Assembly (NCBI GenBank): GCA_008632985.1
Contig: QPGO01000037.1
Coordinates: 496,001-560,000, forward strand
Length of the DNA: 64,000 nucleotides
Direction: 5' to 3'
Origin: Psammoneis japonica
Taxonomy: Eukaryota
This document shows, one piece after another, positions 17,547 through 57,216 of the stretch. Positions within the stretch are counted from its first letter, which is position 1. Every line of letters starts with the position of its first letter. The notes under the pieces were generated by a model. The model had not been told where the DNA came from. It made no database searches and saw only the letters and a list, made by a program, of their open reading frames with translations. The position numbers were made by a program, and so were the translations under genes.

Positions 17547-18057
17547 TTTGCAGGTTGTGAGGAAAGAGACAGTTGCGCTTTGGTGCAAATGATGGTGCAA
17601 ATGGTTGCTGCTCAGGTTTGGTCATGCGAATGGTGTGTGCAGTGAGTGGCGACGGAAAACAAGACATGAAATTGGCGCGCAAATTGTGCTCATTCATTTC
17701 TTTGCATTGATGAATGCTTTTGTGGTCACCTGTCAAAAGCATGCATTGGGATCATTGAATGCTTTCAGATTGAACAATTGATGACAATGTGAAAATTGCC
17801 AACGGAAAGGAAAGAGAGCAAGTCAGAATGTGGTCTTCATCATGCGATGTGGTCACCACTCATGGCAAAAAAAATGAGTGAGGTCCAATGGCCATCAGCT
17901 CCAGTGGAAGAAATTTGAAGAGGAGAACAGTCTGAAACAAGAGAGAAGAGAAGAAAAGATGGAGGTGGGCTGCAGCTTGGCAAAAGAAGAGCCAAGTTGC
18001 TGGTTCAGCACAGGGAGGAAGGATCACTCCGGGGACCTGCACCTGTGAAGAGACTGC

Positions 18058-19140
18058 ATGGACATGTTTTGTTCATTTGGGTGCAGCAGTCACACAAGGA
18101 CTGACTTTGGCAACAACGTTCCATCTGTTGATGCAATTTGGAAGATTTGTTGGAACAACACAGAGAGGGAAGAACAAACCGTCAAGGAAAAATGGAAAGA
18201 AATGTGGGAAAACAAATGCAGGACCATGAGCAAGGTGCATGATGACATGCAGGAATGGAGCAAAGAAGCAAGGGAATGTGTGCACACTGCCCGGCAATGT
18301 TCTCCATTCGCAACAAGGACAAGCACGCAAGTGTGATCATCGAGCGTGCAAGGAATGCTCACAGAACCAGGCAGCATTGGAGCTCAACAGCAACACACCC
18401 AGACAGGCAAGGAGAGCTGTTTTGTGAAAGCAGTTGGTTGCACAACGATTGCAAGGATGAGATGCTAGATCTTTCAGCTGCTGGATCAAGGGAGGGCAAG
18501 CTTTGTTTGGCAATTGACAAGCAAGATGTTGGGGCATTGAGAGCAGAGTCAACCATCAGCTTGCCCACCCATGGATTGGACCCAAGTGGGAGATGCAGAC
18601 CACTTGCATTGGACAACGGTTTGGGAGGTGTGTGCTCACTGGTTGTGGACAAAGGGCGTCGCATTTGATGCCAGGAAGCTGGTGGAATTTTTCAAGCAAC
18701 AAGTCCTGCAAGACACACTGCACAGGTTGTGGTGGTGCAACAAACTGGAGTTCTTTGGATTGACGCCAAGGACGGTTGACAGTTGGACATTGGAGATCAT
18801 CAAGAAAATTGACTTGGGTGAGAGGATTGCAGCTGTTGTTGTGAGGACAAGCATGCGGCAATCCGGCAAAGACAATGTCTGAAGACAATGTTTGAAGATG
18901 AAGAAAGAAAAGATCTGCCGTGATTGCATCAAGCGTTTCATTGGCTGTGTCAGCGAGGCAACAAACGCATTTGATCACATGATTGATTGCTCACACAAGG
19001 GAAGGCACAGCGATTTTGTCATTGTCCATTTCAAGGAGGACGCCATGGAAGAATTGGGTTGGAGATCAGTTTTGGTGCCAAGTGGCAATCGGAGGATCAG
19101 AGAACATGGACAAAGCTCCAGCCATTCACAGGGATCAATT
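18058..19140 (+). pseudogene. Degenerate ORF of unknown function, divergent from the transposase
   Basis: In-frame segments 18571-18882 and 18892-19140 are separated by a single TGA. Composition is protein-like with no Tyr. Confidence 0.4.
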
Positions 19141-19168
19141 TTCACATGCGAATCTGCACAGTTGAAAG

Positions 19169-19620
19169 TGCAGCATGCATGCAGACAAAAGGTTGTTTTT
19201 GTCACGCCCTTTGTGACATTCAAAGGCTGCAACACGTTGCCGTGATGCATCAACTCTCATCAGTGGCTGTGTGTTGCACTCCTCCCCATGTGTCACGCGT
19301 CCATGCGGCTCTTTGCTGACGTGTGCGGCACTGACACTGCACGGTTTTGGCGGAACAGTGTGGGTGCGTACGAAGGAACATGCAGAACTGCACAGAGTTT
19401 CACGCGTTCGACAGTGATCAACGTTGCTGCAGACAACTCCCACTCAGGGTTTCGAACCCCTGGCCTCCTGCCCAATGGTTGCGATGAACCACTCCGCTGT
19501 GAATTCACAATGCAGCATGCATGCAGACAAAAGGTCATTTTTGTCACACCCTTTGTGACATTTAAAGGCTGCAACACGTCGCCGTGATGCATTGACTCTC
19601 ATCAGCAGCTGCACATTGCA
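19169..19620 (-). mobile_element. TRIM-like miniature LTR element: 110-bp terminal direct repeats, 232-bp interior
   Basis: Repeats 19169-19278 and 19511-19620 both run TG...CA. AAAG flanks both sides (19165-19168, 19621-19624). On the minus strand a polypurine tract GGGGAGGAG abuts the 3' repeat. No clear PBS. Confidence 0.65.
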
Positions 19621-19942
19621 AAAGTTTCAAATGGAATGATCGAGCCAGATGTCGAATTCATCGTTGACAATTGACCATAAAATTTGAGCTGAACATTTCA
19701 TCTCTTTAATTCAAATGAATGCAACCAAGGATGTTGTCAAAGAAAACACAAACATTGCCAACCACAATTGTTTGGGAAGGAGGTTGCAGTTAAAAATGCA
19801 CAAAGAGGGGAGGTGCTGTCACCATCAGAGTGTCAAGAAAGAGGTTTGAAATTTTGAAAAGCCGGTCTTCCTCTGAAGACCTGCTGCACCACACGATTGC
19901 CCAAACTTCACGCCGTTGCCACAACACATTAAGTCAAGGGCC

Positions 19943-21198
19943 ATGGGAAGGAAAAAGAAGAAGTCGGAGAAGGAGAGGGCAGCAGAAGAGGTGCCGCCGA
20001 ACAGCCCGAGGCTGACAGTGGCATTGCAGCGGTCGGGGGCTGCTGGTGATCACAAATTGCTGAAGAGAGAGGTGGGAGAGGTGGCACGGAGAGAGCTCTT
20101 CCCAAAAGTGAGGTTCCTTGTGAAAGCAGACATGGCAAGTGGTGGCAAGGTGTCACAGCTGACACGGAAAAACATGGCAGATGGCAAGTTCAGCAAGCAT
20201 GAATGGGCAGGATTGTGGGAGGGCTGGGCAAAGAAAAGGGCGTGCTCAATGTGATCAAGGTGAAAAGAAACGCCGTGTGTCAGATGACAATGAAGAGTGT
20301 GATGAGTGGCAAGTGCGGCGGAGGGGGCACATGTCCAAGGTGGGAATGGGTGTGGTGCTGCCAATGAGAGTCTCCTTTCTTGAAGTCATCATGACAGAAA
20401 AAGAAGCCGGGGAAATCTGCAAGAGGAATGAACAAGCAAGGAAGAAAACCAGGAAGCAGAAAATGGCAAAGCCAAGATTGAAGAAAAATTCCTGGCAACT
20501 TGGGAGGATGGGGCTGTTGACACCATTGTGTTTGAGAAGTGCAAGAACAGGGAGGCGCGCATGCATGGTTCCAGGACAACATCCCCAAATGCACGAAGAG
20601 CACTGTGATGTAGAGAAGGATGGCAGAGTCAGGCAGCACCAAGGCTGCAGATCTGGCAATGGCAAGCAACAAGGCACTGGCCCTCTTGATGATGGAAAAC
20701 TGCTGGAAGGTTTGGGAGCACAAAACCACACAGGAGGGAGATGATGAAGGGGGCAAGGAGGAAAAACCAGTGCCGTTGCACACAGACCCATCGCGACAGC
20801 GTGACTCTTGGAAGGATGAAGGAACAGTGCACTTCAATGCCCTGCTTGAGGAGACAAAGAAAGACAGAGCAAGTGAGCAGGGAGTGCATTTCGACACACG
20901 ACACACTGACGGAAAGAAAAAGGAGAGCAAAGGTGAAGGAAAAAAGGAAAGAAACACTAAAAAACCAACGAATTCAGAGCAAAGAATGCAAGCAGCAACA
21001 GAACTTTCCAGTGACAACAAGGAGGACAACAATGCAACAGATGCACCAGCTGACAAGAGCAATGAGGAGGGCGATGGAGCCAGCCAAGAAAACAGCAGTG
21101 GAAGTGAGAAGAATGAAAAACTCAGTGCAAGCCAATTGGAAATGTGGAGCAACCGGCACCACAGCATTGACTCAGTGTCAATTGATGATCAATGTTAA
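19943..21198 (+). pseudogene. Plavaka-associated accessory ORF, degenerate
   Basis: VARRELFPKVRF...W..LW and ASNKALALLMMENCWKVW...PLHT...SWKDEGTVHFNALLEETKKDR match the recalled diatom TE motif SDEAFALL.LENYW...KYT...GWS.EG..RFN.L...V..DR. Confidence 0.6.
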
Positions 21199-26870: not shown

Positions 26871-27093
26871 GGCACGTACGCACCGTACCGTATGCTGCCG
26901 ACTGTTGTGACTGATTATATGTTGATGGATGGACAGACTGACTTAGAGAAACATGGTGCGTGACGTGATAATACCAAGGAAACCGTAGAACCTACGAAAG
27001 AGAAAAAACGCATGCAAAGTTCTGCATGAAAGATGCAGATGGGCTTCGCACTGTCAATGATGCTCTCGCTGCTTGTTTCACGAATAACGCACA

Positions 27094-28989
27094 ATGAGTC
27101 GTTACCACAGCGGACCACCGACCATGGCAGAAGATGATGGCGACGACATGTGTGACAGACGTGGCAAGAAGGACAAACGAACTGTTGAAGAAGCAGTGAT
27201 GGATCAAGCGGCTCAAGATCATCAAGCTCGCAGATGGCAGAGAAAGCTTCGTCAACAGCAGCATCGTCAAGAACGATCTCATCCCCAACTAGTAGATGTG
27301 TCGGACCTAGAAGAGAGTATTGATGTGCCAGTCTCTGCCATGTCTGGTGCTTTTGCAGTCTATGATGAAGGGGACGTTCGACGACGTGGGCGAAATGATG
27401 ACTTGACTGTCGTTTCTGGTTTGGAGTCTGATCGATTGGATTCTGTCATGCCACCGCCGGAGCAAAACGTCAGCACTCTACATGTTGAGGACGCTCAACC
27501 AACAGGCGATTTCGTTGGTCGTTTTCGACAAGGTGAAATCAGTCGAATGGTTCAGGAGGAGAATGCTCGCCTTCAGCAATCCCTTGCCCATGCTGAGGTT
27601 GCTCAAGCTGTCCCGGTATCCGCGAACGACAATGATCAAAACGATGAGGAAAGGACAGAAGAAAAGAGAGAAAGACGGAAACGCTTTTTTATTTATGGAA
27701 TTGTAATGCTGGTGATTGTTCTGGTTGCAGCAGTCGCGATTGGAGTTCCAGTTGCAATCATGAGCAACAACAAGAATGACACTCCTGCTCCCACTCCATC
27801 TCCGACTAGCTCTATCGTTCCTCTCCCCAATACGCTGTGGCGACCCGTTGGTCAAGTTTTGAATGGCAGAGACTCACTTGACTTCTTTGGGGAATCTGTA
27901 GCCTTATCGCACGACGGCGGTGTTGTGGCTGTTGGAGCAGAACAAGCTTCGGACCCAGGGTACGTTGCCGTGTTTCGATTAGATCAATCTAGACAAGAGT
28001 GGGCACAAATAGGTGAAGACTTGGTTGGAGAAGCTGATGGTGACGAATTTGGTGAATCGGTGGCATTGAATGGAGATGGCAATATAGTTGCGATTGGAGC
28101 TGACAACAATGGCAGCGGCGGGACAGGTTCTGGTCATGTTCGTGTTTACGGATACAACAACGCCTTCGACACTTGGACCCAAATAGGCAATGGCATTGAT
28201 GGACTAGCAGCTGGCGATAGATTTGGCGCCTCTGTATCTCTTTCAGACTCGGGAACCATTCTTGCCGTTGGGGCTTCTGGTGAAGACACGGACGGTGGCG
28301 ACAATTCTGGATCGGTTCGTATATTCAAATACGACGCAGGGACATGGGAGCAACTCGGACAGGCACTCACCGGCCAATCTGTTAATGATCAAGTAGGCGT
28401 ATCAGTTTCTTTGAGCAGTTCGGGGACGATAATTTGTGTTGGATCAAGTGGAAATGATGTGTCGGTGTACGAATACAATTCTGAATCGTCATTGTGGGAT
28501 CCAAAAGGTAACGCAGCGAACGGAAGAATCAGTATCGATTCGTATGGGTCTGCTGTTTCTCTTGATGACAGCGGTTCCGTTATGGCCGTGGGATCACCTT
28601 TTAGCGGCGAAAGGGTGTTAATTTTTGCTTACGATCGTGCATCTTTGACGTGGAAACAAAGAGGTCAAACTCTAGAGACGCAACAGGAGGGCGATGCCTT
28701 TGGCTCTTCAGTGGCTTTGAGCGGAAACGGGCATGTCGTGGCAGTAGGAAGTTTTCGGTACAATATCGAAACTCGAGAAGACGTGGGCCAAGTTTCAGTC
28801 TTTCAGTTTGACACAAGCACAGAGAGCTGGGTTGAGGTGGGCAAACGATTAAATGGTGCCTCTAGGCGTGATACTTTTGGAAATTCCGTATCATTGTCTG
28901 TCGACGGCAGTGTGCTTGGAGTGGGAGCAAGGAATCGCGATCTAAACGGCGACGACAAAGGGTCCGCATATATTTTCACCGTCTTGTAG
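27094..28989 (+). CDS. Single-pass membrane protein with FG-GAP/integrin-alpha-like beta-propeller repeats
   Basis: 631-aa ORF with TM segment FFIYGIVMLVIVLVAAVAIGV, a PTPSPT stalk and seven repeats of FG.SVALS.DG..VAVGA...G.VRVY. Confidence 0.9.
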   Translation: MSRYHSGPPTMAEDDGDDMCDRRGKKDKRTVEEAVMDQAAQDHQARRWQRKLRQQQHRQERSHPQLVDVSDLEESIDVPVSAMSGAFAVYDEGDVRRRGRNDDLTVVSGLESDRLDSVMPPPEQNVSTLHVEDAQPTGDFVGRFRQGEISRMVQEENARLQQSLAHAEVAQAVPVSANDNDQNDEERTEEKRERRKRFFIYGIVMLVIVLVAAVAIGVPVAIMSNNKNDTPAPTPSPTSSIVPLPNTLWRPVGQVLNGRDSLDFFGESVALSHDGGVVAVGAEQASDPGYVAVFRLDQSRQEWAQIGEDLVGEADGDEFGESVALNGDGNIVAIGADNNGSGGTGSGHVRVYGYNNAFDTWTQIGNGIDGLAAGDRFGASVSLSDSGTILAVGASGEDTDGGDNSGSVRIFKYDAGTWEQLGQALTGQSVNDQVGVSVSLSSSGTIICVGSSGNDVSVYEYNSESSLWDPKGNAANGRISIDSYGSAVSLDDSGSVMAVGSPFSGERVLIFAYDRASLTWKQRGQTLETQQEGDAFGSSVALSGNGHVVAVGSFRYNIETREDVGQVSVFQFDTSTESWVEVGKRLNGASRRDTFGNSVSLSVDGSVLGVGARNRDLNGDDKGSAYIFTVL

Positions 28990-29504: not shown

Positions 29505-30382
29505 CTATGGCCACGTGACAATGACGGTGATATTGTCAAAACTTCCACGAATCAACGCCTCCTTACAAAGTTTGTGAGCAATCTCGTCTTTATCCATACC
29601 CTGAGCTTTCCAATTCCACACCAAATTGACAGCTTCTTGATCCTGCAAGACATCCCACAGTCCATCACAGGCAATAATCAAAAAGTCACTCTCGTCCTCT
29701 TCCCAGTCCCTCTGGGTATACGACACGAACGGCTTGGCAATGACAAATTTCTTCAATCCGTAGTCCCCCAAACTCCTCGCCACAGCCAGCACTCCCAAGA
29801 CTCGTCCCTTCAATACAAAACCACCCGCTTGCTCAATTCGTTTGACTTCATCCGTGTCGTCGGCACGGTGATCGTGTGTCAAGCGTTGGCTCGGCCCGCA
29901 CAACTCCCATACGTTATACGTGCGTCTCCAGCATTGGCGGAGTGAATGGCGGTGCACACAAATCTGGACTGCTCCTCATTCAGCTCGTATTCTAACAAAC
30001 ACAAGGCGACTGTTGCACCCGACGTTTCTATTCCAGCCTTGACATGACTGCAAATGTCGGTCAGCAAAAAACTGCGTTCGAGTTTTTCCTTCATGCTACT
30101 GTCATCATCATCGACAGACAATTCTTGCTTGACGACGTGATGAAGGGTCGCGTGCAGGTAATCACAAATTTCACGTCCCCCGTGGCCGTCGTAAACTGCC
30201 AAGAGACTGTACTTTTTCGTAATGCCATTCTTATCCACAATCGTTACCAAGTCGGGTTGAATCATGTAGGCGTCCTCCATGGTGGAACGTTTGGTTGGAT
30301 TCATTTCTTCTGCAACCCCATACATCAACTCGGGCAGTGACGGCATTGACATTACTTCTGAAGACGTCGGAGATGACGACAT
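29505..30382 (-). CDS. Protein phosphatase 2C (PPM family) with one apparent 1-bp frameshift near 29888
   Basis: Motifs RSTMED, AVYDGHGG, SGAT, ANAGDAR, LTHDH, LAVARSLGD, IIACDGLWDV and GSFDNITV are split across ORFs 29879-30598 and 29505-29957. Start codon inferred. Confidence 0.85.
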
Positions 30383-30739
30383 TGATGATGACACAAGAAT
30401 TATGACCGATTGACTCAAGATGCTGATGAGGGTCGAAGGAGAGGAGATGGTATTTGTTTGGTACAGTAGAGCGACAGCAGCGGCGGTTTGTCTTTGTTGT
30501 TGTCTCTCGCTCTCCATCGTTTTTGGTGCGCTTCGAGGGTGGCGCGTCGCGGCGCGCGATTGGCGAAGATTCAAAAATTGCAACAATGACTGGGACATCT
30601 AGTAGAGGGCTACGTACCTTTCTACATTCGTCTTTTCCACATTGAAATCACGTAGGGCCCCATGCTTGCAGAAGTGGTGGCATTTTGGAAAAATGCAAGA
30701 CTGAAACGCATTTTGGAGTTGTCGGACGAACCACATTGG

Positions 30740-35731: not shown

Positions 35732-36751
35732 TCAGCCTTCGCTTTTGGCTCTTAACTCTTCTTGCACCCGATGAATTGCCGGTAGTCCCCGAGTGTGGTT
35801 AGCGGCAGCCTCGGCCATTATCTTATAGCTGGCACTAGCGGCACCGGCACTGGAATTCGCCATTGATGCTCTCTCCTGGTGCATGGAACGGAGTTCTGTG
35901 ACTTCCGTTTTGACAAATGGGTGTGCTGCCATCATGGCAGAGTCGTGTCGTTGTGTAGGATCCTTGTCACAACAACAGCGTACAAAGTCAAGCATTTCCG
36001 GAGACCACTCATCCGGGTCGGCCAGCGTCGGTGATGGTTTGGTGGGAATGACGAAAATGGCACGGAGCGGGTTCAACTCTGAGTGCGGTGGCGCACCTTC
36101 AGCCATTTCTACAACCGTGATACCCAAACTCCATACATCAGCACGTCCATCATAGTGCGACTCGCGAATGACTTCGGGCGCCATCCAGTATGAAGAGCCT
36201 GCAACTACATGTGGTGTGCTTGGCATTTCCGCTGCTCGACCGAAACCCGCCAGTTTAACGTATCCCTCGTTTGTCAACAATACATGCTGGCACCTAACAT
36301 CACGGTGACAAACGTTCATCACACCATGCAAGTACTCTAATGCTAAGACAACGCTGGCGCAAACGGCCCTGATAAAGTCTTCTGGCAACATTGATTCCTT
36401 GTTGGCCTCGATCAGATCCACCATACTTCCACCATCGCAGTGCTCCATAACAATCCACATTTCCTTGAGTTTGTTGAAACACTCCAAATACCGTATAATA
36501 TATGGTGAATCACATCGACTAAGAATCCTGACTTCACGCATGCTCTTTTCAATTTCGTCTGTCGTTTCATTAGGGATCACTTTAACCGCAACCGTGGCTC
36601 CGGTAGGCTTGTGAGTGGCTTGATAGAGCTTGTGGGTAGATGGGGGGAATTCAGTTTTCCCGAGGGGCCCAAAAGAGCCTTCTCCAAGCAGGGTGACGAT
36701 ATCAAGATCATCCGAATTATCTTCTGAAACCTGATTCAAAACAAAGGGCAT
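35732..36751 (-). CDS. STE20/MST-like Ser/Thr kinase with degenerate catalytic motifs
   Basis: LGEGSFG, VAVK, YWMAPEVIRESHYDGRADVWSLGIT.VEMAEGAPPH...NPLRAIFVIP (STE20 signature). The catalytic loop reads HRDVRCQH and DFG reads GFG. Confidence 0.85.
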   Translation of the reverse strand: MPFVLNQVSEDNSDDLDIVTLLGEGSFGPLGKTEFPPSTHKLYQATHKPTGATVAVKVIPNETTDEIEKSMREVRILSRCDSPYIIRYLECFNKLKEMWIVMEHCDGGSMVDLIEANKESMLPEDFIRAVCASVVLALEYLHGVMNVCHRDVRCQHVLLTNEGYVKLAGFGRAAEMPSTPHVVAGSSYWMAPEVIRESHYDGRADVWSLGITVVEMAEGAPPHSELNPLRAIFVIPTKPSPTLADPDEWSPEMLDFVRCCCDKDPTQRHDSAMMAAHPFVKTEVTELRSMHQERASMANSSAGAASASYKIMAEAAANHTRGLPAIHRVQEELRAKSEG

Positions 36752-39700
36752 CGGTAATTTTCAGAAAAGCAGCACGGAACAAGATTGTCCGGATGGCGCA
36801 CAAGGGAAAAATCGAGACGCAGCAATGGTGTTGGTAAGTGCGACATGCTTGGTGACAAGACATAGTGCAAATAGAGTTCACAGAAGAAGCGGAATGCACA
36901 TAGTTCGTCGACAGAAATTTCATTGTTGAAAGCTTCAACGTTGCTCGTCGCTCGCCCTTCTCGTGTCACAGGCGTCGTTCAACCCAAAGCAATCCGGTTG
37001 TCTCACCGCATCCCTCCATCACCGGACGACGTCTAGCTGAAGCAAAGCATAATGTCGTGAGCGTGAAAAGAACGTACTTTTACCTCCATGGTCTTCCGTG
37101 GAACTTTCAGAGCTCTTGTTGGTGCTGTTTGAGTTTGTGGCTGGTTCTGGCGTCGCAGAGTGAGTGACCTAAGGGTGAGGAGATTGATTCAACCTACAAA
37201 CACGTTGTTTTCGCCACTCTTCAATATTTTCTTGCCTCAACTGCTTGTTCCCGGCGTCTGTTTTTGTTTTTTAAACTGCGACGAAAGGCGTTTACCAGGC
37301 CCTGAACATGAACCGCGTGTTGGTCTTGCAAGACTGACGAATCATCTGAGACGACTCCTCCAGACTATCCAAGACTGATTCTTGCTCGTTGTCCCCGCCC
37401 GCCCTCGTCGCGCTTTCACGCACGCGGGGCCCGCTACATTTTTCAGTTCACTTGTCCGTCGATTTTTTTAATTAGGGGACCTCCCTCCGAGGCTGAAATC
37501 TTTCAATCCGCCGATTGCCGCCATGAGAACCGTAGAGCGCCACTGGCAAAAGATGCCACAGCCATGACGACGATGAACACCGGCATTGCAGTGACCCTCG
37601 GGCCTTCCGACTTCATCGGCCGCATTGGATGGGGTGATGTTGAGCCTCGAGAAGTCAAGAAGGCCTTGGATGGGAGGAAGTTCACGACAGCAAAAAAGAA
37701 ACAGCTTCTCATTCAACCCAAATTGTGGCAGAACTTCGCACAGTCGCTTTGAGTTGACATCGGGCGAGGTTGATCCGCACATTGCTCAACCCGAGGAAGC
37801 GACAAAGGAAATGCCCAATCTCTCAAGAGGCAACATCAGTGGATCAATTTGCAGCGAATGGCAGACATGAACGATTGCTCGTCGAAACAAAATCCAAAAT
37901 GCACAACCACCTTTGAGTTGGCTTTGCCAATTTTCACACTGTTGCAAAAAATCCTCCAAGATGTTGGTGGGACAATGTGCATGTTCGTCCATGTCTCTGA
38001 AGGTCAGCTCTGTGGTGCGAATTGGTTGATTTTGAACGCAGAAGTTGGAAAGGTGCAAGGCGTTTTGTGTGCATGCAGTGAACAAAAACTCAAGCACCAA
38101 CTCACCAGTTTGCTGTTGACTGTGCTCTTTTCTCTTTCTACGCTGATCACAGTCACACATGACTTTTGCTGCAAACTGCTCAAATTCCAGTGTCTCTTGA
38201 GTGGTGTCTTCGAGCACTCCAGTCCCATGGATGCCCTCAAAATTTCGGTGCCAGCCCTCTGGTGCTGGCATCTGGCAGAATTCGCTGCTCTGCACTGTGC
38301 TCTCCAATCTCCCCGCTGCCCTCTTTCAAGTCACCTGGGGCCCTGTCAGTGCAAGCTCGTCATGAAGGCGCTCGCTCCCGCACTGTGTTTCCGTGTGTCG
38401 GCGTGGCTGTTGTTGTGCTGGGAGAGTCTTGTCCTCTGAAAAAGACAGAAAATCAAAGGATGCTGCTGCTCAGTCACTCAAGAAGGGATCAGTCACTGTG
38501 CTCTGGCATTCTGCACAAAGAATTTGGATTGAACTCACTTGTGCTTCCAAAGCAAAACCAATGGAGAATGGAGAATGTGCATCTGGAGAAAAATGAGTGC
38601 ATGGGGAGGACTGTCTCTGTCCTGTTCCAAGCCAAACATGGAAAAGGAGCTTGGGAGGAGACCACAAGGACCCAAGGCCTGGTGCATTCATTGCCATGGG
38701 GTCAGAAGCAGCAGCCATGGCAATGATCAGTCCAAGTTGCCGTCGAAACAAGAGACCTTCCAACTGTTGGCATGAAAAGCCTCTTGGAGAATGTTTGCAG
38801 CTTGTGAGTTGTGTTCTTTGAGATCTGTTGTTCACAAGAAAACATGGGCAGCAAAAGATGTCATGCAAGCACTCCTTCAACCTTTTCTAATCCAGTCACA
38901 TTGGACAAGCTCCCACCCTCGCAATGCATGGGCTCTTTTGTTGCCCGTGTGCCAACTCTCATGACAAGTGTTTTTTGCCAATTCCGCACGTGGTTTCTCC
39001 ATCGACTGAGTGCCCGATTGGCTGGACACTGTTCAGTCTTTGTTGTTCTCTTGCCAACAACATTCATTCCCAGTGAGAAAACGTTGTGAACGAATCATTC
39101 ACAAGTCTCTTGAGTGTGGAGCCCTCGGCTTCTCACAACTGCACCGCGTCGGTGCACGGTCGTTGCAGGGGGGCGCGTTCTTGCATCATTCTGCACTTTT
39201 CCATTCATTGTTCTTTGCAGCAGTGCTCCACATCATCATGTGCACCACTGCATCATGTGACACCAATGCCAAAGTGGCCAGTTTGCTCCACATGATGGCA
39301 GATGGGTGGTCATGGTGTGTTTTGCCGTGTGAATCTTGAATCTCACGTGGCTTGTCGGATTGAAACATTTCAATTTAAAACAGAAAATTAAGAGAGCCCA
39401 TGCAGAGCAGAAGGGAACAGCAGAGGGAGGCACGGAGGTGGCTGCAGTGACGGCAGAGTAGAAGGGCCGAAGGACACAGGACAAAGGGCGTTTAGAGGAA
39501 GGTGTGGGTGAGGAGGGAGCAGGGAGGGAGGAAGTGAATCGGAGGATGTGCGTAGAAAGGTGAAGAACGACGTTGCAGCCAAGGGTTTGGGTGGCCCACT
39601 GGGATGGGGAGGCTGTGCGGCAGGTGCTCCCAAAGCGATCGGCGGACAGGCAATGCCATGCGAAGTCAGCGGATGGAAGGATTGCAGATGGAGATGACAA

Positions 39701-41636
39701 AGCACAGAGGAAGGCGGAGCAGGAGGCAACGGAGTGACAAAAGTCAGAGGAAGAGGACCAGGGCGGCTTGGGCTGAGAGCAGATGGAAGAAGACGCAGGG
39801 CCAAAGAGCAAGCGGTGAGCAAAGCAGCCGAGACCACCAAGGTGATCGACGGTGAAGGGGAGCAGGAAGATGCCATCGTTGTCAAGCAAAGAAACAACAA
39901 GGGATCCATCAGCAAAGGAAGCAGAGGGGCCAAGGAACTTCAATCTCACGCTCGAGTGGTGTGCCTCAGTTAAAATGGGAGAAGAGGGAGCAGGCAGACC
40001 TGGAGGAGGGCAAGAAGGAGCTTGAGGGACGGCAACATCCACTGCAATGTAATGATGATGGGAAGGAGCAGAAAGGGAGGCGGGAGGGGGAATTGTGTCA
40101 ACTGGGGTGTCTGTGGGGTTGGCAGTTGTGTGGTGGGGAAACAGGTGGTGGAGGAGGCGTGTGCAGTGCGCTGGGAGAGGGAGAGAAAAAGGGTTGGCCA
40201 AGGGTGCAGACAGACGGTCGTGAGGAGGAGTTGGTGATGGTGGGATGGCAGAGGAGGAAAGCTTGACATGTGGAGAGATGGTTGGAGAGAGCAAAGCCAA
40301 AATTGAGGCTGAGGATTTGGGAAGCCCAGAGCAGGAGTGTTGCTGCATGACAGGAGGAGCCGAAGTGATTGGTGAAAGTTTGTTTCCAGGCCGCATTGGA
40401 TTGGGTGAGGAGGTTGGAAGGAGCTAAAAGGGAGTTGGTGCAGGCGGAGAAGGATGCGTGCGAGTTGGACAAAGAGGATGGGCTGGACCAGGGCGGTTTG
40501 GGAGGGAGGGGTGGGACGGAGGAAGAGGCAGTGGTGGAAGCGCCAAAGAAAAAGACATGGAAGTGATGTCCAATGCCTCCGAGGTGGTCAAAGGTAAAAG
40601 GGAGGAGGAAGAGGCCTGCTTGGTTGATGGCGTCAATGACGTCGGAGCCATGAGCAGAGGATGTAGAACAGCCGAGGAGCTTGTCCCGAGTGCTGCTGAG
40701 GTGAGCCTTGTTGAGTGGGTTTTCAGGGACAGGCAAACCAGGTGCAGGAGGCGGGGGAGCGGGCGGTGCGGTGACACCAATTGCCAGGAATTGGTGGGTG
40801 GATGGAGCGTTTGGTGGTGTGGAGCCGGGAGTGAGTTGGATGCCGACGTTGGCGGGGTGTTTTAGAGGGTGGTCGGGTGGGAGTCCGGCAGGGTCGAGGT
40901 AGACTTGTTGGCGAGACCGGCAGAGACCGCACATGGGGCCGAGGGTTTCGATGACAGTGTGGATGGTGTCACGGATGTGGTTGGACAGAGGGCCTTTGTG
41001 CATTTTGGAGCAGGCAAAGGCGCGATCGCTGCACGGGTCGGGGTGGGCGTGGCCACATGGGCAGTTGTGTTGGGAGAGGGTGGATGGGACAATGGGCAGG
41101 CGGAGCTTGCGCAGGAGGAGGATTGTGAAGAGGTGTGGCGGAAGGCGGTTGGAAGTGGGGGTGCGGGACAGGGAGTGAAGGCACAGGCTTGTGAGTGGGG
41201 ACAATGGGGATGGGAGCACCAGTTGGATGGAAGGATCAGCGAGGAGCAGGGGAAGGGTGTTGTGTGCATGATGGTGGAGGTGAAGGTGCTGTGAGAGACT
41301 GCATGGGGTGTGGTGTTTGACAGCGTGTGGAAGGGAGGTGAAAGAGGAAGAATCAAGTTTGAGAAGGGTGGGAGCGCAGTGGCGAAAGATTTGGTAGAGG
41401 GAGAGAGTAGAGCAAGGGTTGGACCATGAACCAAGAGCGGCAGAGCGGCTTGAGGGAAGGTGGAAGATGGTGCCACCGGTGAGTGGGATGCCATGTTTGG
41501 TGCAACGGACAGATCGGAGGAGGGAGGTGATTAGAGCGGGGACGGCAACTGCGGAGACATCTCAATGTCCGATGCTGCCCAAGGAGATGGGCAGGGTGGC
41601 AATGAGTTTGGAGGCGGATGGGAACGGGTCGGCATG

Positions 41637-43515
41637 CTACCGGAGGACTCAACCGGTCCCGGCGTCCGTGACTGAAATTTCACCACGGTGAAGCACGAGA
41701 GTCGAATAATTCGATTGGACTCAACCGGTCCCGATTTTGCATTGAAAACGGCATGTTGTACTTTGATGCATCTCGCCATGGCATACATCGTTGGGTCGAT
41801 GTATCTTTCATGTGGGATCTTTTTCTATCGTTGTTATAAAGAGGTTGATGCATTGGTTTGGTTTCCTGGGGGGCTTTGGTGGCGACACACGGTACAAACG
41901 GTTGCGTGCCTCGACTCGTGACTCGATTGCTGCACGGTACGGGTGACATCTGAATGGTCGACAACGTTGCCGTGGTAAGTTCTTTCTGTGTTTTCTCATT
42001 TTATACCGTTTATCTACTCACTGAAGATGTTGTTTGTGCTTTGTTACAGCTTCATAGGAGGATATATCGTCTCGTACGGTCGATTATTGCATCTGCAATA
42101 TTGGCATCTTTTTCACGTCGTCGTCATCACAAAAGCGCATCCGTTTGGGAGCCTTGTGCTTCATCCCACTCCACATCTTTTGGTACATCTATTTTTACTA
42201 TTTATTTGGACTTGTGACAAGCTTGATATGTTTTTGAAGGTCTTGGTCGGCTCGTAATCACAGCATGTCGTTTTTCGGCGATAACAATTTCTTGAAAGTG
42301 CATGCCGTGGGAACAAAACGATGCGATGGAGTCTCGGGGATACTCACGACATTGGCATTTGTCAGACAGCCTTTCCATAGTCCAAAGAAGGTAACCCTGT
42401 GAGCATGTTGTGATTGATTGAGTTTTGGACTCGTTTTGACGAAACTTGCATACCTCACGAGCCTTTTTTGGTGCGTCTCGATCATGCGCACAGGTGTCTG
42501 GTCCTTTTTGACCCTTTCCACCTACCCTTCAACCGCATTATCATCATCATCTAAGACACAATATTGTCCACGTTATTTTGGGAGATCTTTGTGGTGTAAC
42601 TACGACTCTAGGCTTTGCAATGGGTAAAATGGGAAGGTTGAGGCTTGTGTTGGCGGGTTCATCGCCTCCTCTTGAATGCGCGGATGCCACGAACCGCTGA
42701 TGTTACTTGGGGGCATAAAAATTAGTAAGGCGACTCAGCTCTACATTTAAAAGGTGCCCTAGTGAGTATACTGTGACATGTAACCCCAATGGATTATTAT
42801 TGTGTACGTTGTTCCACTCATATTTTCATTTTGCCTGTCATTTTCCAGTGTGACTGTCGTTGACCGTTAAAGCTTGCAGTGGCATTTCCAGGCCCATGTT
42901 CTACATGACAGATATCTTTTGATACTCTTTGCTCATATGGGGAAATCAGATCCTGGAGCACTCAGTTCCTAGTCGGGTGTAGAGAGGTACAAGTGCAATG
43001 GATGAAATTTGGACCAGGGCACAGATGGAGTTGGGGCGAACGTGCTGTTTCTTCTCGCTGGTAGAGTTAGTTAGTGTGGGTGTGCGTGCGGATGGCCTCT
43101 CTATTTAGGGCTACTACTCTCTAGAGTGCTACAGTGCCACTCTAGAGTAGAACTTGGCGCAAAAGGTAAGAGATCAATTTTTTTGTGATTTTCGACTCGT
43201 CGCGGCATCTTCGGCGTTGTCCGTTGACGACGATAAGCAATCAATTGAAATGACTTATAGACTTATAGGCATTTTGTTGTTCTTTAGAGATATGATTGTA
43301 TAGCTTCTAGTATTCTAGCTTTCTTCAAGGGTAGGATTGTATCGCATGTCCTTCGGGAAGAAGTCGCTTTGCGTTATCATTGCGTTGTGGCGGCACTCTC
43401 AAACTCATCCATCGCGGCGGCTTGTGCGTAGGGCTACGTACTAATTCTAGCGAGCGTCCGTCAGTCAGCCGGCGGGACCGGTTGAGGCAGCGGGACCGGT
43501 TGAGTCCGCCGGTAG
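41637..43515. mobile_element. Young non-autonomous DNA transposon, 1879 bp, 25-bp TIRs, CATG target-site duplication; not TpA-depleted
   Basis: Left ctaccggaggactcaaccggtcccg vs reverse complement of right ctaccggcggactcaaccggtcccg (1 mismatch). CATG at 41633-41636 and 43516-43519. Extra ctcaaccggtccc copies near 41720 and 43474. Excision restores the host frame LTQH/ADPFPSASKLIATLPISLG. Confidence 0.9.
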
Positions 43516-43519
43516 CATG

Positions 43520-45076
43520 TTGGGTGAGGCAGGTGAGGAATCGGAGGGAGTGGCCGATGATTTGGTCGGTGAAGGGGGATGCCCATTGAAAAGGGGGTGG
43601 GAAGTCATCGGAGCGCAGAAGGTTGTGACATGTGTCGGCGGACAGCAGGTGGGTGATGGAAGGGATGGAGCACTTGCGGAAGAGGGTGCTTTGTGTTTGT
43701 TTGTCGGTGAGACGGACGGTGAGGCGATGAAGGTCGGTGGCAAAGGAGGTGGCCTTGTTGTGAAGGAAATCGAGGGCAAAAGTGGGCGAACCGATGGGGC
43801 GACCGAGGAAGCGGGTGCCGGTGGTGATCTCGGGCGTGACATGGGGACTGTTGTGGGGATTTAGGAAGGTCAAGGCTTCGGAGAGTGCGGCGGCGTCGGC
43901 AGGTGGGAGGTGGTTGACGGGAGAAGAGCCGGCAATGGATGTGAGAATTTGGGTCTTGGAGGTGTTGAGCTTGATGCCAAATTGGGGGCCGCAGGTGGAG
44001 AGTTGTTGGAGGAACCAAGGGAGCTGGGAGAAGGGAAGGAAGATGTGGGTGTCATCAATGCATGAAGAGGCAGCAGATTTGGAACGGGGAGGGAGTCGAT
44101 GACACAGTTCGTCGTTGACGGGGTGGAATGCGTGAGCCAAAACAAGGTAGGAAAAGGCAGGGCTGAGGGGGCAGCCTTGAGCAAATCCCTCGGGTTGAGA
44201 GAAGGAGGACCATTGCAAGTGGTGGTCACGGTGCCAGCAGGTGTCAGGGTCTTGGCAGAGCAGGTCGAAGAAAGGCACAAGAGGGTGGCACTCGTCGGAG
44301 TTGTCGAGGGTGTGGCGACAGGCATCACGGGAGCATTCGTTGAAACAACTGGACAGGTCAAGGAGGAGGAGAGCTTTGGTTGGCGTGGAGTCTGGTTGAA
44401 AGTGTCGTTCGATGTTGGCACAGGTGGTGTCGACGAGGCAGTCGAGACCTCCTTTGACTCCGACTCCAAATTGGCCAGAGAGTGGGAGGTTGGCAGCAAA
44501 GGTGGCGGCAAAAAGGAACATGATGAGGGTGCCGATGATTCTGTGAAGGGCGGTTCCGACGCTGATGGGTCGAAGCTTGGATGGGTTGGATGAGTCTTTG
44601 TGGAGAGCGAGGAAGTGGTTGGAAGAAAAGACAGGTTTGATGGATGCAGGGATGTCCGCTGCAAGAATGAGATCGAGCAGATGTTTGAAGGTGAGCAAGC
44701 AGGGGCAGGAAGTGGATGTTGGCGTGGAACGGCGGTGGAGGGCGCAGGCCTTGAATGGGTCGGTGGAATCGGCAAAGGTGCCGGGTGCTTTGCCTGGTTG
44801 ACATTTGGCGAGGGCTTTGCGGAGATCGTCGGTGGTGCAGTGCAGGGGGGAGGAAGCAGATCGTTGGTGTCGGGTGGAGGGGGGAGAAGGCAGCGGTGGG
44901 TGTTTCCGGGGCGGATAAAGTTGCTTGACAAGTTCCATGCGTTCGGGGGTGAGAGAGGCAACGGGAAGGGAGGAGGTGGCCCGGGCGCAGGCGGCATGAA
45001 GGTTGTTGACGTTAGCGGCAATTTGGGCAGAGTGGGCGCAGGATGTGTTGTCAAAGTCGGGAGGTTCGTCAGACAT
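43520..45076 (-). pseudogene. Reverse transcriptase domain of CRE element B; catalytic YIDD reads CIDD
   Basis: ORF 43325-45076. The codon at 44060-44062 (minus strand TGC) precedes ATT GAT GAC. The frame continues at 41632 after removing the insertion. Confidence 0.9.
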
Positions 45077-47779
45077 GTCTGGGATGGGTGTTGAGCAAGA
45101 TTGGTCATAGAGGGCACGGATGGAACCGTTGCGGAAGAGGAAAAGACGTTGTGTGATGGTGGTGGAGAGAGGGATGTTGGAGTTCTTGGGGCGTGGGTGG
45201 AGGACGAGAGATTCAAAGAGGAAGAGGAGCTTGAAGAAAGGGTCAGAGGCTGTTTGCCAAGAAGGGGGTGGGTCGTCGGCGGGGTCGAAAGGCTTGGAGG
45301 AGTCGACAGTCCATTGGATGAGATGATGGAGGGTGAGAAGGACCTAGAGGCGAGAGGAAGGGGGGAGTTTGTGCCAGATGGAGGCGCAGAAGGGCGGAGT
45401 CGACAGGGGCAGTGAGTGGAGCCACTGAAGGGAGGCTGCCCAATCAGCAAGCTCTTGGCATGGGTGGGAGGATGCAACGAGCTGAAGATTGGCAGTTGTG
45501 CGGAATTGAAAATGGATGTCAGAAATGTGGGTGTGTGGGTGAGTGTCACGGAGGTGCATCTTGGTGGTTCGTTGGCAATGTCGGCATGGGTGCAGGTCAT
45601 GGAGCTCGAAAAAGGAGTTGGGGATGGCAAGGAGGCTGCGGTGTTTGTGTGCAGAAGAGAGATGCATGCGCAGAAGCTTGGGCACTTGAGGCGGAGGAGC
45701 ATTGGGTGGGAGGGAGAAGGAGCAGCCCTCGAAGGGGCAGGAGCAGTTGGCAACCCCTGGTGGGGTGCGGGTGCCGATGGGTTCCATTGCTGGAGGGTGG
45801 GGCGAAGTGTGTTGGGGTCTTGATTGGTGTCAGCAGCCTGTTGGGCGAGTGTGGTCCACTCAGCGAGGTGTGTGGGAGCAAAGGAGTGGACCCATTGGTC
45901 GAAGACATCGAGAAGCTCAAGGTCGCGTTGAGAGCACTCGATGTCCATGTCGGGTGGGTCGGGGTGTGGCGTGCATTCTGTGGGTGTGGACGGGGCATTG
46001 CATGTCAAGGTGGGAGTGTCGGTGGCGAAAGGGTCGGGGTCCATGGCAGCAGTTTCGGAGGAGAACGTGGAGCTGTCGAGGTCGGGAGGGTGTGAGCGTT
46101 TCTTGCGTTGTTGAGAAGGGGGCGTGCGGGTGCTGTCGCGTGTCAGTGCAATTGGGGACGGTGGCGTGGGTTCCCAGGAGGCTTCGAGGAAGGAGAGGGC
46201 TGTTTCGGACAGGGTGTCTTTTGAGAAGGTTGAGAGGTTGCTTGGGCAAAGGACGCAGATGTTCGGGCAGGGGAGGGAGGGGGGCGGCGGGGAGGGAGGT
46301 CCTTGAGGAGGTGTTTGGGGATGTTGGGACAGAGGTGGAGGGTGGCGTCAGTGATGTCCATGACAAACGGGGTGGCGAAAAAAAGGAGCTTGTGTCGGAC
46401 TGGGGTGTCACTGTGAGAGAAAAAAACAGGGATGAAACCAAAAAGGTCAGGGGTGGAGAGAAGTTCGTCGTAGTCGGAAGGCGCGGAGATGTTGAGGCGG
46501 CTCGTGACGATGGCAAAGCTGTCGGCTTGGCGTTTGTTAATGGCTTGCAGGCGCGTGGCGATGGGAAGGGTTTTGGGAAAGGAAGGGAAGGGGACAACCG
46601 AAAGGGAAAGGCCGAGGATGTGCATGATTGGAGGCGGCGTGTTGGAAGGGTTGACGACGGATAGAAAGGAGGTCCACATTTCGGGCGTGGAGGTGGTGAG
46701 AAAGTAAACGTCAGACTGGGGGATCTTGGCGGTTTGGGCGGAGAAAGTTGGGAAGCGGGAGGGGCGGACACCGACGTGATCAAGGAAGGTGCTGCACTCA
46801 GAGAAAAGAGAAAGGGTGGGGTCTGAGGGGTTGGCAGGTAAAAGGGATTTGACGTGAGTGTGCAGTTGTTGGAGAAGAAATTTGCAGGTGCATCGAGATT
46901 GACCATGGGTTTTGGGGTTGATGCCGGCGAGGATGCCGCGGGCTTGTTCAGTGAAGGAGTTGCAAGCAGGGATGAGAAAGGTGGCATAGCGAGTCCAGGG
47001 GTTGGGAGATGCGGGGGTGTCTATGGCATCCGAGGGAAGGAAGTCAGGGGAGGTGGAGGAGGCAGAGTGGTGCTTGAATTGTGTGGGAGGGTGCAGGTGC
47101 CACTTTTGCACAGTGAAGCAGAGAACTTGGTCATGGAAAGGGAGGAAATCGAAGGGTTCGTGGGAGGAGACGGGAGCAAAAGTTAGTTCGAAATAGGAGG
47201 CCCATTGATTGTGGTGAGGGCGGGAGCGGTGCTTGGTTGCAGAAAAGGTGATGTTGGCAATGTCGAAGAGAAGGCGGGGTTCACGTGCAGCGTGTGTTCA
47301 GAGGGTGGTTTGGACAATGGAGTGGACGCCGTCAACATCGATGGCGGGTTCGGGCTTGTCGGCAGGGTTGGATGGGTGCAAGAATTGAAGAAGGAGCTTG
47401 GCGGTGGTCGGAAGTGGGTTGGGATCGATGGTGTCGGTGGAGGCGTCAGGCTGCACATGAGTGTTGGAAGCATCGGGAATTTTGGTGGCGGGAGAAGGGG
47501 TGGCAGCAGCAGTGAAGATGGAAGAGGAGTCAAGGGATGGAGGGTGGGAAGGGGAAGTGACTGTGTGGACAGTTGGGGGCAGAGGCTGGGCTGGGGTCTT
47601 GGGTGGAGACGCAGGCAGGGAGTGGGGGTCGTGGGGGTCGCGTGGTGGGGCAGTGGGGGTTGGAAGCAAGGGTTGAGATGTCTGGGAGTCTTGGGAGTTC
47701 TGGATGCTTTCTTGGAGGGAGGGCCAGTTGGAGTGGTCATTGAGGGAGGACATGGCGGAGTGCAAAAGGGAGCGAAAGG

Positions 47780-48240
47780 CGGAGTCGAAGTCGAAGGCAG
47801 AATCGAGGGTGGAGTCGGAGGCGAGAGCGGAGTCGGGGGTGGAGTCGGAGGTGAGAGCGGAGTCGGGGTTGGAGTTGCAGAGGTTGAAGTGTTGCGCAGG
47901 TTGTCTGTGCATTGTAGGAGATTTGACATGTTCAGAGTCGAGTGCAGGAAATTGGATGTGTTCAGAGTCGATGTGGTGCGTAGATTCCCCGTGTGTCGCA
48001 GGAAAGTTGATGTGTTCGGAGTCAAAGTCAAAAGCGGAATCGAAGTCAGAGCAAGAAACAAAAGCAGAGTTGTGGTCATTGATGTGTTGCGTAGATTTCT
48101 CATGTGTCGCAGGAAAGTTGATGTGGTCAGGGTTGAAGCAAAAAGCGGAATTGAAGTCAGAGTCGGAAATGAAAGCAGAGTTGTGGCCATTGATGTGGTG
48201 CGTGAATTTGTTGTGTGTCGAAGGAAAGTTTTTGTGTGCC
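47780..48240. repeat. Coding tandem repeats (30-bp and about 108-bp units) in the CRE B ORF1 region
   Basis: Repeated ggagtcggagg.gagagcggagtcgggg and gatgtg.tgcgtagatt...tgtgtcgcaggaaagttgatgtg units. Confidence 0.75.
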
Positions 48241-49205
48241 GCAGGAAGGGAGAAGGTGTGAGCAGACACAAGAAGGAGGGCAGTTGGGGAGGGTGCACAA
48301 AATCGTGGCTGAAGCAAAACTTTTTGATGGGGGGCCATTGAGGGTGTCATGGGGGCCACAAGAAGGGTTGGAGAAAGAGAATGAGGAGATGGGGTCAGAG
48401 GCCGGAACACGACTGACAGTGCAGGGGTGATCGTGGAGGAGGGCATGCGATGAGGGGGAGAGGGAGAGGGAGAGGGAGGGCTGTTGGGGGTGTCAGAAAG
48501 GGGTGATGGAGTGGGGCTGTGTGGTTGTTTGTGGGGGGGTGGAAAGAGGAAGGATGGAAGGGGGGTGATGGTGAGAGAGGGGGGCAACAGTGGGGAAGGG
48601 GTCGCAGGAGCAGCGCACGGGTTGAGGACGATGAGGAAAATGGCGAAAACCGAAATGACGCGGAGGAGGTGCCACAAAGCGAAAGGCCCAAGGAGTGGTG
48701 GTGGGTCGGGAGGCCATTTCGGAAGGTGCAGCGAAGCGCTGCTTGACTGGGGAGTGAACCCCATCGGCGTTGTCAATGGGGCTTTCACAATCATCGTTGG
48801 ACGGCAGCTAAGTTGCACGCATGTTGATTGAAATGCCGACATCGGCGGGACGGAGAAGCGGGCGGCGGGTGGGGAGCAGGTTGGCAGGCTCGAGATGAAC
48901 GTCATTGGGGGAGCGACAGAACTCTGCAAGGGGTCAGGGAGGTCCCATATAAATAAAAAAATCGACGGACAAGTGATCTGAAAAATGTAGCGGAACAACA
49001 CGTAGAATTCTACACCCGTACATAAATAGGAACCACGATTCACACGACTCACCCGTGTCAGCAATTTTGAATCTTCACATCATGAACTCACATTTTAGAA
49101 AAAGCCTGGATGCGATTCCAGAGGAGTTCTCATTGTTATTTGCATCAACCACAACAACTCGAAAAAGACAATAGTCGACCACATATTGTGTCAACAGATC
49201 CATCT

Positions 49206-56900: not shown

Positions 56901-57216
56901 GGAATGCCGAAACAAGAGCATTGCTGCTGCTCTGATAGTACTGCTGTAATCTTGACATGTTATTCCAAGCATGGTGACCGTGGTGATGTACTGCTTGTAA
57001 TGCTTGTTGTTCTTCTGCAATGGCTCGTTGTAACTGTTCGTCGGCGAGCCTTCTTGCTTGTTCTGCCGCGGCGCGGGCTTGAATCGCTCGATCGAGTCGT
57101 TGTTGTTCTGCTGCATGACTGTTGTTTTGACTCAGACGCAACAACTCGATACAACATTCTTGTTCATCGAGCAGTTGTCGACTGTTGGTATCGTCCGGTG
57201 ACGGCACCATGGTCAT
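50941..57216 (-). CDS. Large protein with eight dispersed Myb/SANT (TRF-like) domains; three apparent 1-bp frameshifts
   Basis: Eight copies of WT..E(E/D)..LLEG.....W..IS..V.TR(T/S)..QC..(H/R)M across ORFs 53272-57363, 52997-53401, 51555-53045 and 50941-51660, separated by Ser/Gln/Ala-rich linkers. Start inferred. Confidence 0.85.

Follow-up and report, generated by a model that had tools for sequence, protein, structure and literature searches.

Near-saturating loss of TpA after insertion in a family of short LTR retrotransposons (TRIMs) of the diatom Psammoneis japonica

Mutation-based genome defence has so far, to our knowledge, been a speciality of fungi, in the form of RIP (C to T). In ascomycetes, RIP is confined to repeats, changes C to T (CpA to TpA) and so creates TpA, and it leaves long same-strand runs. 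Within the reach of our search, an A-to-G counterpart on chromosomal DNA is in print in one 2026 chlorarachniophyte preprint, which describes, in its accessible text, TpA hypermutation of integrated NCLDV/virophage DNA in Bigelowiella natans (Mettrop et al., bioRxiv 10.64898/2026.01.13.699255). There, the rate measured in living lines is ~1000-fold above baseline and the process is on in some lines only; according to the same text, transposon domains are enriched in TpA-depleted genes, ADAT2-type deamination is proposed as the cause, and RIP is named as a comparison. Neither 'diatom' nor 'LTR' appears anywhere in that text.

The diatom process described here is a variant of the kind known from that preprint. 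As far as its accessible parts go, both systems change A to G or T to C at TpA, yielding TpG or CpA, on either strand, in chromosomal DNA, locally and far above background; the diatom changes are likewise TpA-centred transitions on both strands, with mobile chromosomal DNA hit and genes spared. The target in the diatom is a multi-copy, non-coding TRIM with 8.5% of TA left, whereas the Bigelowiella NCLDV region, in the text seen, keeps a Rho of 0.45. The Bigelowiella rate comes from living lines and the diatom estimate, at least ~200-fold, from a fossil record; a context hierarchy, the sparing of TTTAAA and same-strand bystander edits are seen in the diatom only, the accessible preprint text reporting TpA hits alone. 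New in the diatom case are thus the other lineage, the transposon target, the near saturation, and a described event size and context. Among the papers listed by our search of the literature outside subscription journals, there was no report of TpA loss in diatom repeats. The TRIM family provides a large internal assay of TpA mutation in a second lineage.

RIP is like the diatom process in being confined to repeats and in making dinucleotide-specific transitions after insertion on both strands. However, RIP creates TpA and the diatom process removes it (TA in 8 of 7344 cells at 72 constant TG/CA sites), and strand choice in the diatom is independent beyond 3 nt, unlike the long same-strand runs of RIP. 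Fungal RIP was rejected as the process on the first of these grounds.

Our reading of the locus, which we hold with very little doubt, is that a TRIM entered an older repeat, that its family stems from a TA-intact source, and that TpA was lost after insertion by A-to-G change on either strand, alongside a slower decay of CpG. The window analysed is a stretch of 64,000 nucleotides (contig QPGO01000037.1, positions 496,001 to 560,000), and the focal element occupies positions 19169-19620. It is 452 bp long, has TG...CA ends and two 110-bp LTRs, and is flanked by a target site duplication (TSD) AAAG (19165-19168 on the left, 19621-19624 on the right, both plus strand). A polypurine tract, GGGGAGGAG, adjoins the left LTR on the minus strand at 19279-19287 and lies there in all three copies inspected; it provides the orientation of the element, so that the LTR at 19169-19278 (minus strand) is the 3' LTR, if the purine tract is taken as the guide, and that at 19511-19620 (minus strand) the 5' LTR. 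An earlier note on this DNA had proposed an unannotated TRIM, and its ends, duplication, minus-strand tract and length were all correct.

The left LTR holds 10 TA-type swap sites, one TTTAAA site and four CG sites. Its TTTAAA site (19219-19224) is mutated to TTCAAA in the focal copy and retains TA in 88 of 99 scored copies, while the partner at 19561-19566 retains TA in the focal copy and in 95 of 100 scored copies. The internal region (19279-19510, minus strand) is non-coding and measures 232 bp in the focal copy, which has an insertion of 5 nt private to it near 19322-19328; the total length of most copies is 445-449 bp. No ORF of ≥ 120 amino acids lies inside the element. A motif scan of the minus strand picked out a putative box-B-like motif of the Pol III promoter type, GGTTCGAAACC (19448-19458; its GGTTC core is as in the accessible part of PMC10886601), and a putative box-A-like motif (19489-19499), the first dinucleotide of which is a TA-type site that reads TA in three little-mutated copies. 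A 12-bp palindrome (19498-19509) occupies the place of the expected primer-binding site, and no TGG-type site was seen there beside the 5' LTR, where a tRNA-half or self-priming site may serve instead. We rejected a tRNA identity of the internal boxes: ARAGORN called no tRNA gene in the window or in any of five copies, Rfam gave no relevant match, and the fold z-score was 0.08.

The element is a TRIM, i.e. a non-autonomous LTR retrotransposon, of a 447-bp type with an unusual internal Pol III-like core. The dispersed family, TSDs, purine tract and solo LTRs bear out the earlier assignment; no recognisable tRNA primer site was seen. With TRIMs and Helenus, as described in the text seen of PMC10886601, it shares a length below 1 kb, the lack of coding capacity, two LTRs, a purine tract, a TSD, solo LTRs and tandems, and box-A- and box-B-like motifs are common to it and Helenus/TRIMp3 (Kojima 2024, PMC10886601). 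In Helenus, according to that text, the tRNA-derived part lies in the LTRs, whereas the diatom TRIM has its box motifs internally and neither a recognisable tRNA-complementary primer site nor a tRNA call. An identity with Helenus (TRIMp3) was rejected, as the boxes are internal and no tRNA sequence is found in the LTRs; the word 'diatom' occurs 0 times in the part of PMC10886601 seen.

Comparison of the two focal LTRs (19169-19278 and 19511-19620) yielded a gapless alignment with 13 mismatches at a length of 110 bp only, shifted lengths of 108, 109, 111 and 112 bp giving 82-90 mismatches. All 13 differences are transitions (19194/5, 19206, 19221, 19238, 19251/2, 19264/5 and 19270-73; partners at +342), and they fall in eight YR dinucleotides, five of which are TG/CA swaps; the remaining three read CA (19221) vs TA (19563), CG (19205) vs CA (19547) and TG (19238) vs CG (19580). 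The earlier note had described exactly this pattern, without indels. YR is present in both LTRs at 68 of 110 positions, so that the probability of all 13 differences lying in YR is 0.0012; that of 13 transitions out of 13 is 6e-7 at a rate of 1/3 and 0.0013 at a rate of 0.6. The twin-LTR read-out undercounts change, because five site pairs of the focal copy have reached an identical state and are invisible in it. The focal copy is converted at 30 of 31 TA-type sites, including all 20 TA-type LTR positions and one of the two TTTAAA sites. At window position 19715, the contig from run X1 reads G where the window has A, in flank of unique depth, which may be an allele or an assembly error.

A DNA search of the genome with the element returned 41 matches from 322 candidates, 40 of which were scored. 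Exact matching found 211 occurrences of a 24-base internal probe and 386 of a 23-base LTR probe, and none of the reversed controls. After removal of three duplicates there were 120 distinct copies; 18 that were truncated or interrupted were set aside ahead of any counting, leaving 102 full-length copies (L030 was not recovered by the core match). An exact 4-bp TSD borders 87 of the 102, the tetramer starting with C in 50 and ending in G in 53. The family also includes solo LTRs with a TSD (L123, L125 and L128) and three-LTR tandems (L073 and L090). Ten loci around unpaired or odd LTR matches, taken from the matches listed (100 of 386), proved to be full TRIMs, interrupted copies and solo LTRs, with no long autonomous partner among them. 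A diatom LTR element with a 4-bp duplication (TTCC) is already on record in the accessible part of PMC2806351, so the length of the TSD does not name the partner of the TRIM. Identical loci were seen on two contigs each for L018/L019 (C112, C94) and L131/L132 (C41, C317), as uncollapsed haplotypes or recent duplications would give.

The focal TRIM sits in an older multi-copy repeat at about 17700-21000 (true ends not mapped), which is eroded at both TpA and CpG and has 33 other matches in the genome. All 14 paralogs examined lack the element and carry a single tetramer at its position (13 AAAG, 1 TAAG); they are empty paralogous sites. The earlier note had suggested a search for empty-site alleles with one AAAG. 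Together with the 211 exact core matches, they set aside its own counter-case of an element with no other copies and no empty site. For an empty allele of the focal locus itself, no joint skipping the element was seen among the contigs of run X1, a search by which absence is not shown. Against its two closest paralogs, the host repeat has 26 CG in common and 95 mismatched, which is far more CG loss than in the TRIM and is in keeping with a greater age.

What the sites looked like before mutation follows from the family. Across the 102 copies, the 31 TA-type sites read TA 265, TG 1567, CA 1283 and CG 20 times (3135 cells; TA left, 8.5%), and the 23 CG sites read CG 2069, TG 143, CA 109 and TA 0 times (2321 cells; CG kept, 89%). 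Three TA-type sites, 19174, 19516 and 19614, show TA in no copy; 19614 was classed by its TA-showing sister, and 19174 and 19516 by their mixed TG/CA state only. TA is most frequent in the least-mutated copies, namely L087 (19 of 31 sites) and L046, L053 and L107 (13-14 of 31). These data show that the family spread from a TA-intact source. At the focal element, six of the eight swap sites were ancestrally TA and two CG, as the earlier note had allowed by naming TA and CG as alternative origins. Ordinary 5mC decay of sites that were all formerly CG is practically out of the question: such decay is real at the 23 CG sites and explains the two focal CG sites, but the swap sites read TA 265 against CG 20 times, true CG sites stay CG in 89% of cells, and little-mutated copies show TA. 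A CpG origin of the 31 TA-type sites is refuted by the same counts and by the TA-retaining copies. The CG component itself fits ordinary 5mC decay; DNMT5-dependent CG methylation of transposons was demonstrated in Phaeodactylum (PMC9998398, in the part seen).

The two dinucleotides decay at very different speeds. The hazard per dinucleotide is 2.47 for TA and 0.115-0.12 for CG, a ratio of ~20; the CG value is 0.115 with and 0.120 without site 19453, which lies inside the search pattern and is therefore biased towards retention. Restricting the count to copies from pattern-search loci (71 copies, not picked for likeness to the focal copy) gave hazards of 2.37 (TA) and 0.123 (CG). Sister LTRs across the 102 copies differ by 771 transitions and seven transversions in 2239 positions at TA sites, by 92 and five in 815 at CG sites, by 131 and 13 in 5165 within 4 nt of a TA site, and by 65 and five in 2948 further away, 46 of these 65 transitions being in columns 19169 and 19180. 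Non-target columns > 4 nt from a TA site were changed in 0.5% (G/C columns) to 0.9% (A/T columns) of cells, columns near the private insertion of the focal copy being left out of the background counts. The per-base excess at TA is at least ~200-fold (1.2 per base vs ~0.5-0.8% non-target changes), a lower bound owing to saturation and to a background that includes copying, insertion-time and assembly errors. The earlier claim of no background divergence holds for the focal copy, while family-wide the background is small but non-zero; likewise, its single mutator acting on TA and CG alike was right in that TA loss far exceeds background, but TA and CG represent two processes. As an illustration and not a date, the TA hazard would take ~2.8e5 generations at the Bigelowiella rate of 8.7e-6 per TA per generation, which we computed from the counts in the preprint text seen. 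Dating by LTR divergence would overstate age many-fold in such genomes unless TA- and CG-derived sites are masked.

Sister LTRs agree at 581 of 910 resolved site pairs (63.8%), compared with 59.9% under random pairing (p 0.002-0.006), and each of the 102 copies has at least five TG and at least five CA outcomes, with no strand excess per copy (sum of z2 104, ~102 df). The near-independence of sister LTRs and the mixture of TG and CA in every copy indicate change after insertion, on both strands; the agreement of ~4 points over chance indicates that a small part was inherited or converted. In L087, the ten scored TA sites of the left LTR are intact except the first, against a right LTR in which most sites are converted; L053 shows a similar picture. 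Editing before integration, by an ADAR-like enzyme on RNA or a deaminase on cDNA, could account for that small excess, and the genome does contain two loci with ADAT1/ADAR-type deaminase domains. It predicts a single strand polarity per copy, yet all 102 copies mix TG and CA, and it predicts matching LTRs, yet these are nearly independent and some copies pair one intact with one converted LTR. The mutated TSD copy of L120 and flanks with the same depletion also speak against it. ADAR favours UAG, and TAG is a slow context in the diatom family. LTR independence, TG/CA mixing and half-intact copies exclude RNA or cDNA editing as the main source, and we consider it very improbable overall. Equally improbable is GC-biased or ectopic gene conversion among copies, which could supply the same small excess of sister agreement: G/C is gained only at TA and within 3 nt of it, while CG sites drift to A/T, and agreement between copies averages 0.61 in pairwise comparison, with no clades.

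The TA sites that survive in a copy tend to be neighbours (84 adjacent pairs vs 70.9 ± 3.9, more than in any of 699 permutations), which suggests that exposure was patchy. In L087, L046, L053 and L107, the outermost left site (19174) and the right terminal 30 bp (19588-19614) are nearly all converted and the interior is intact; across the 102 copies, the last five LTR sites retain TA in 17 cells on the inner (left) LTR vs 3 on the terminal (right) one. This pattern, driven by few copies, hints at an inward spread of conversion from the flanks.

The size of single events was examined through agreement in strand. Between TA sites there was no excess of same-strand agreement in distance bins from 4 to 341 nt, and long same-strand tracts were not found. 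At closer range, a TATA pair (2 nt apart) was correlated (phi 0.68 and 0.40), and one TA pair 3 nt apart was mildly anticorrelated (-0.26, -0.30). Adenines outside TA were changed in 3.3% of cells within 4 nt of a TA site vs 0.6% further away. At several columns these edits accompany a same-strand TA hit, e.g. 34/74 with vs 1/23 without such a hit at 19253, 15/32 vs 1/57 at 19380, 7/12 vs 5/86 at 19592 and 33/85 vs 1/14 at 19511; 19510 (6/14 vs 19/85) and 19475 (3/47 vs 5/51) showed no link. The link reached p < 0.05 in eight of 16 hand-picked columns and lay above this in the other eight, and the associations hold in the 71 copies from pattern-search loci. The bystander edits were rejected as inherited sub-family marks, the carriers forming no clade and the edits at 19253 and 19595 being shared between sisters 6 times vs 8.2 expected. 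The simplest reading is that a TA hit and changes at adenines within ~3 nt constitute one short same-strand event; stepwise change of the context after a first hit is possible instead. ApT steps near a TA site also mutate on either strand (at 19510-19511, AT 47, AC 30, GT 21, GC 4) and possibly represent a secondary target there and at 19179-19180.

Short same-strand clusters of A-to-G change are also what a small repair patch would leave if error-prone repair in repeats employed a polymerase-eta-like enzyme inserting G across from template T in WA motifs. Polymerase eta has a TA-first WA preference, which counts in favour of this explanation. Against it, transversion-type outcomes at TA sites amount to only 11 of 3162 cells (TT 5, TC 3, AA 3), A before A far from TA sites was changed in 8 of 2952 and A to G ≥ 7 nt away from a TA site in 31 of 7432, and a single dinucleotide near saturation with 0.2% transversions elsewhere is hard to square with such an enzyme. 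We regard error-prone repair as quite unlikely.

We determined the sequence context in a set of 198 depleted flank segments (247 kb, chosen at TpA O/E < 0.15). Surviving TA ranks, from most to least, TTAA, TTAG/CTAA, CTAG, TTAC, CTAC, TTAT and then CTAT, GTAC, ATAT and ATAC, and the best-kept well-sampled 6-mer is TTTAAA (118/711). An additive model of the 3' neighbour gave A 0.18, G 1.0, C 2.2 and T 2.8 (R2 0.97, with 10 values and four parameters, and coding DNA with only 28-72 TA per 4-mer as control). In the TRIM family itself, strand-resolved hazards are higher before a 3' pyrimidine than before a purine (p 0.003), with no significant effect of the 5' neighbour (p 0.13); the 3' means (A 0.94, G 1.15, C 1.51, T 1.88, sister-LTR sites being counted twice) are weaker than the flank fit. 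Secondary edits near TA sites obey the same rule, with 5.4-5.7% where a pyrimidine follows and 0.2-0.4% where a purine follows. ATTAAC breaks the pattern: it is edited fast, even though no 4-mer is spared more than TTAA in flanks.

This context invites comparison with TadA, which prefers UACG, and with TadA-8e, which prefers UA (accessible parts of PMC8052359 and PMC12296453). In those sources the TadA and TadA-8e editors resemble the diatom process in A-to-G change, in the U/T 5' of the edited A, in a favoured 3' C (wild-type TadA; PMC8052359, text seen) and in the editing of nearby adenines. By contrast, T 3' of the A is at least as good as C in the diatom, and TadA base editors are engineered and Cas9-guided, with preferences measured on RNA and, for TadA-8e, no clear 3' preference (PMC12296453, text seen). 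The TpA signature thus resembles that of the TadA/ADAT family, by analogy and as a resemblance only. The accessible parts of PMC13101598 and 10.1101/2024.05.17.594556 held no usable context data.

The process is targeted to repeats. The element lies in a TpA-depleted domain (1-22000; TpA O/E 0.02-0.12 per 2 kb), whereas gene-bearing 2-kb windows have a TpA O/E of 0.5-0.7. Around the copies, TpA O/E rises from 0.04 in the nearest 200 bp to 0.16 at 1.0-1.25 kb, and TA-rich DNA is reached at 42 of 204 edges, the nearest at 0, 40, 254 and 259 bp. In L120, a 700-bp flank holds 52 TA up to the very edge of the element, which keeps TA at 4 of its 31 sites, and the TSD reads CTTA outside on the left and CTCA on the right. 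The targeting boundary can therefore be base-sharp, with one clear case (L120) and a second at 40 bp among 204 edges. L120 is also the only one of the 102 copies with TA in its TSD, which suggests that TpA had been removed beforehand from the DNA where most copies inserted, or persisted.

Copies that retain more TA tend to have lost less CG (rho -0.39). This would suit an adenine mark (6mA or another adduct) at TpA in silenced repeats that deaminates or miscodes, its specificity set by a methyltransferase-like writer, since such a correlation is what shared silencing, or age alone, would give; likewise, each palindromic dinucleotide is hit once, on either strand and independently of other sites, which parallels CpG decay. 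We nevertheless think such a mark unlikely, because it would need a 20-fold faster decay than 5mC and because a mark alone leaves unexplained the same-strand edits at adenines outside TA within 3 nt. Moreover, eukaryotic 6mA occurs mainly at ApT and in active genes.

As a candidate mechanism, the loss of TpA is probably, though far from securely, the work of a repeat-targeted DNA adenine deaminase of the TadA/ADAT type. Such an enzyme would be brought to silenced repeat DNA, with a small RNA, 5mC or a heterochromatin mark as candidate guides, and would open a few base pairs at a T-A step, best with a pyrimidine 3' of the A and worst in A-tracts; it would convert that A to inosine, which replication would fix as G, and sometimes also edit a second A within ~3 nt on the same strand. 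An edit would remove TA on both strands, so that each site would be hit once and sister LTRs would end up TG vs CA ~40% of the time. The genome encodes an ADAT2 gene (C26) and a TadA-like gene (C38), and also dCMP deaminases, a deaminase-2OG oxygenase fusion and the two ADAT1/ADAR-type loci. Exon-wise domain searches, which provide lower bounds, gave at least nine matches to PF00383, at least five to PF14437 and at least four to PF02137; they found no ADAT3 and no expanded or chromatin-fused deaminase, and no candidate stood out. The ADAT2 asparagine stressed in the preprint is also present in the three best solved ADAT2/Tad2 matches, so this residue does not single out the diatom ADAT2, which appears ordinary. 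Among the deaminase loci, L135 (313-1785, minus strand, G000:C79) fuses a zinc-deaminase domain to a DIOX_N/2OG-Fe(II) oxygenase in one frame, and its predicted role is probably nucleobase salvage; the A_deamin (ADAT1/ADAR-type) genes are two separate ones, L160 (C40) and L161/L162 (C79).

More tentatively, it is a serious possibility that diatoms use a TadA/ADAT-type DNA adenine base editor as a genome defence that acts with near base precision on repeats, reads T-A-pyrimidine within a ~3-nt one-strand window, is also at work in the rhizarian Bigelowiella and may be old in SAR. Our literature search returned no primary study of small RNAs as targeting guides in diatoms. Candidate enzymes can be tested against the event size, the 3' context, the sparing of A-tracts and the sharp edges, and a natural DNA adenine deaminase, if true, would matter to base-editing tools.

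Spared TTTAAA sites looked like landing sites for a TTAA-targeting DNA transposon. In L122 (1152-3727, G000:C4), the LTR is interrupted at the TTAA of this site by ~2.4 kb of DNA bearing short inverted ends, and the duplication reads TTAA on one side and TCAA on the other; we take this insertion to be piggyBac-like. L051, L096 and L110 break at the same TTTAAA site.

Elsewhere in the window, genes with normal TpA lie between depleted blocks at 27088-28989, 29505-30598, 35732-36760 and 50941-57378, and encode an FG-GAP repeat protein, a PP2C, a protein kinase and Myb-repeat proteins. For one gene of the window, the three nearest Atlas clusters are eukaryotic, with Bacillariophyta the most frequent group, at a recognition value slightly below the threshold. 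Loss of TA erases the stop codons TAA and TAG, so that long spurious ORFs arise in dead repeats. A block at ~39000-49000 that is poor in TpA and strongly G-skewed contains a long ORF (43325-45343, minus strand) with a reverse transcriptase match (RVT_1, E 4.5e-9) that is nearly tyrosine-free, as TA loss predicts, and is likely a dead non-LTR element.
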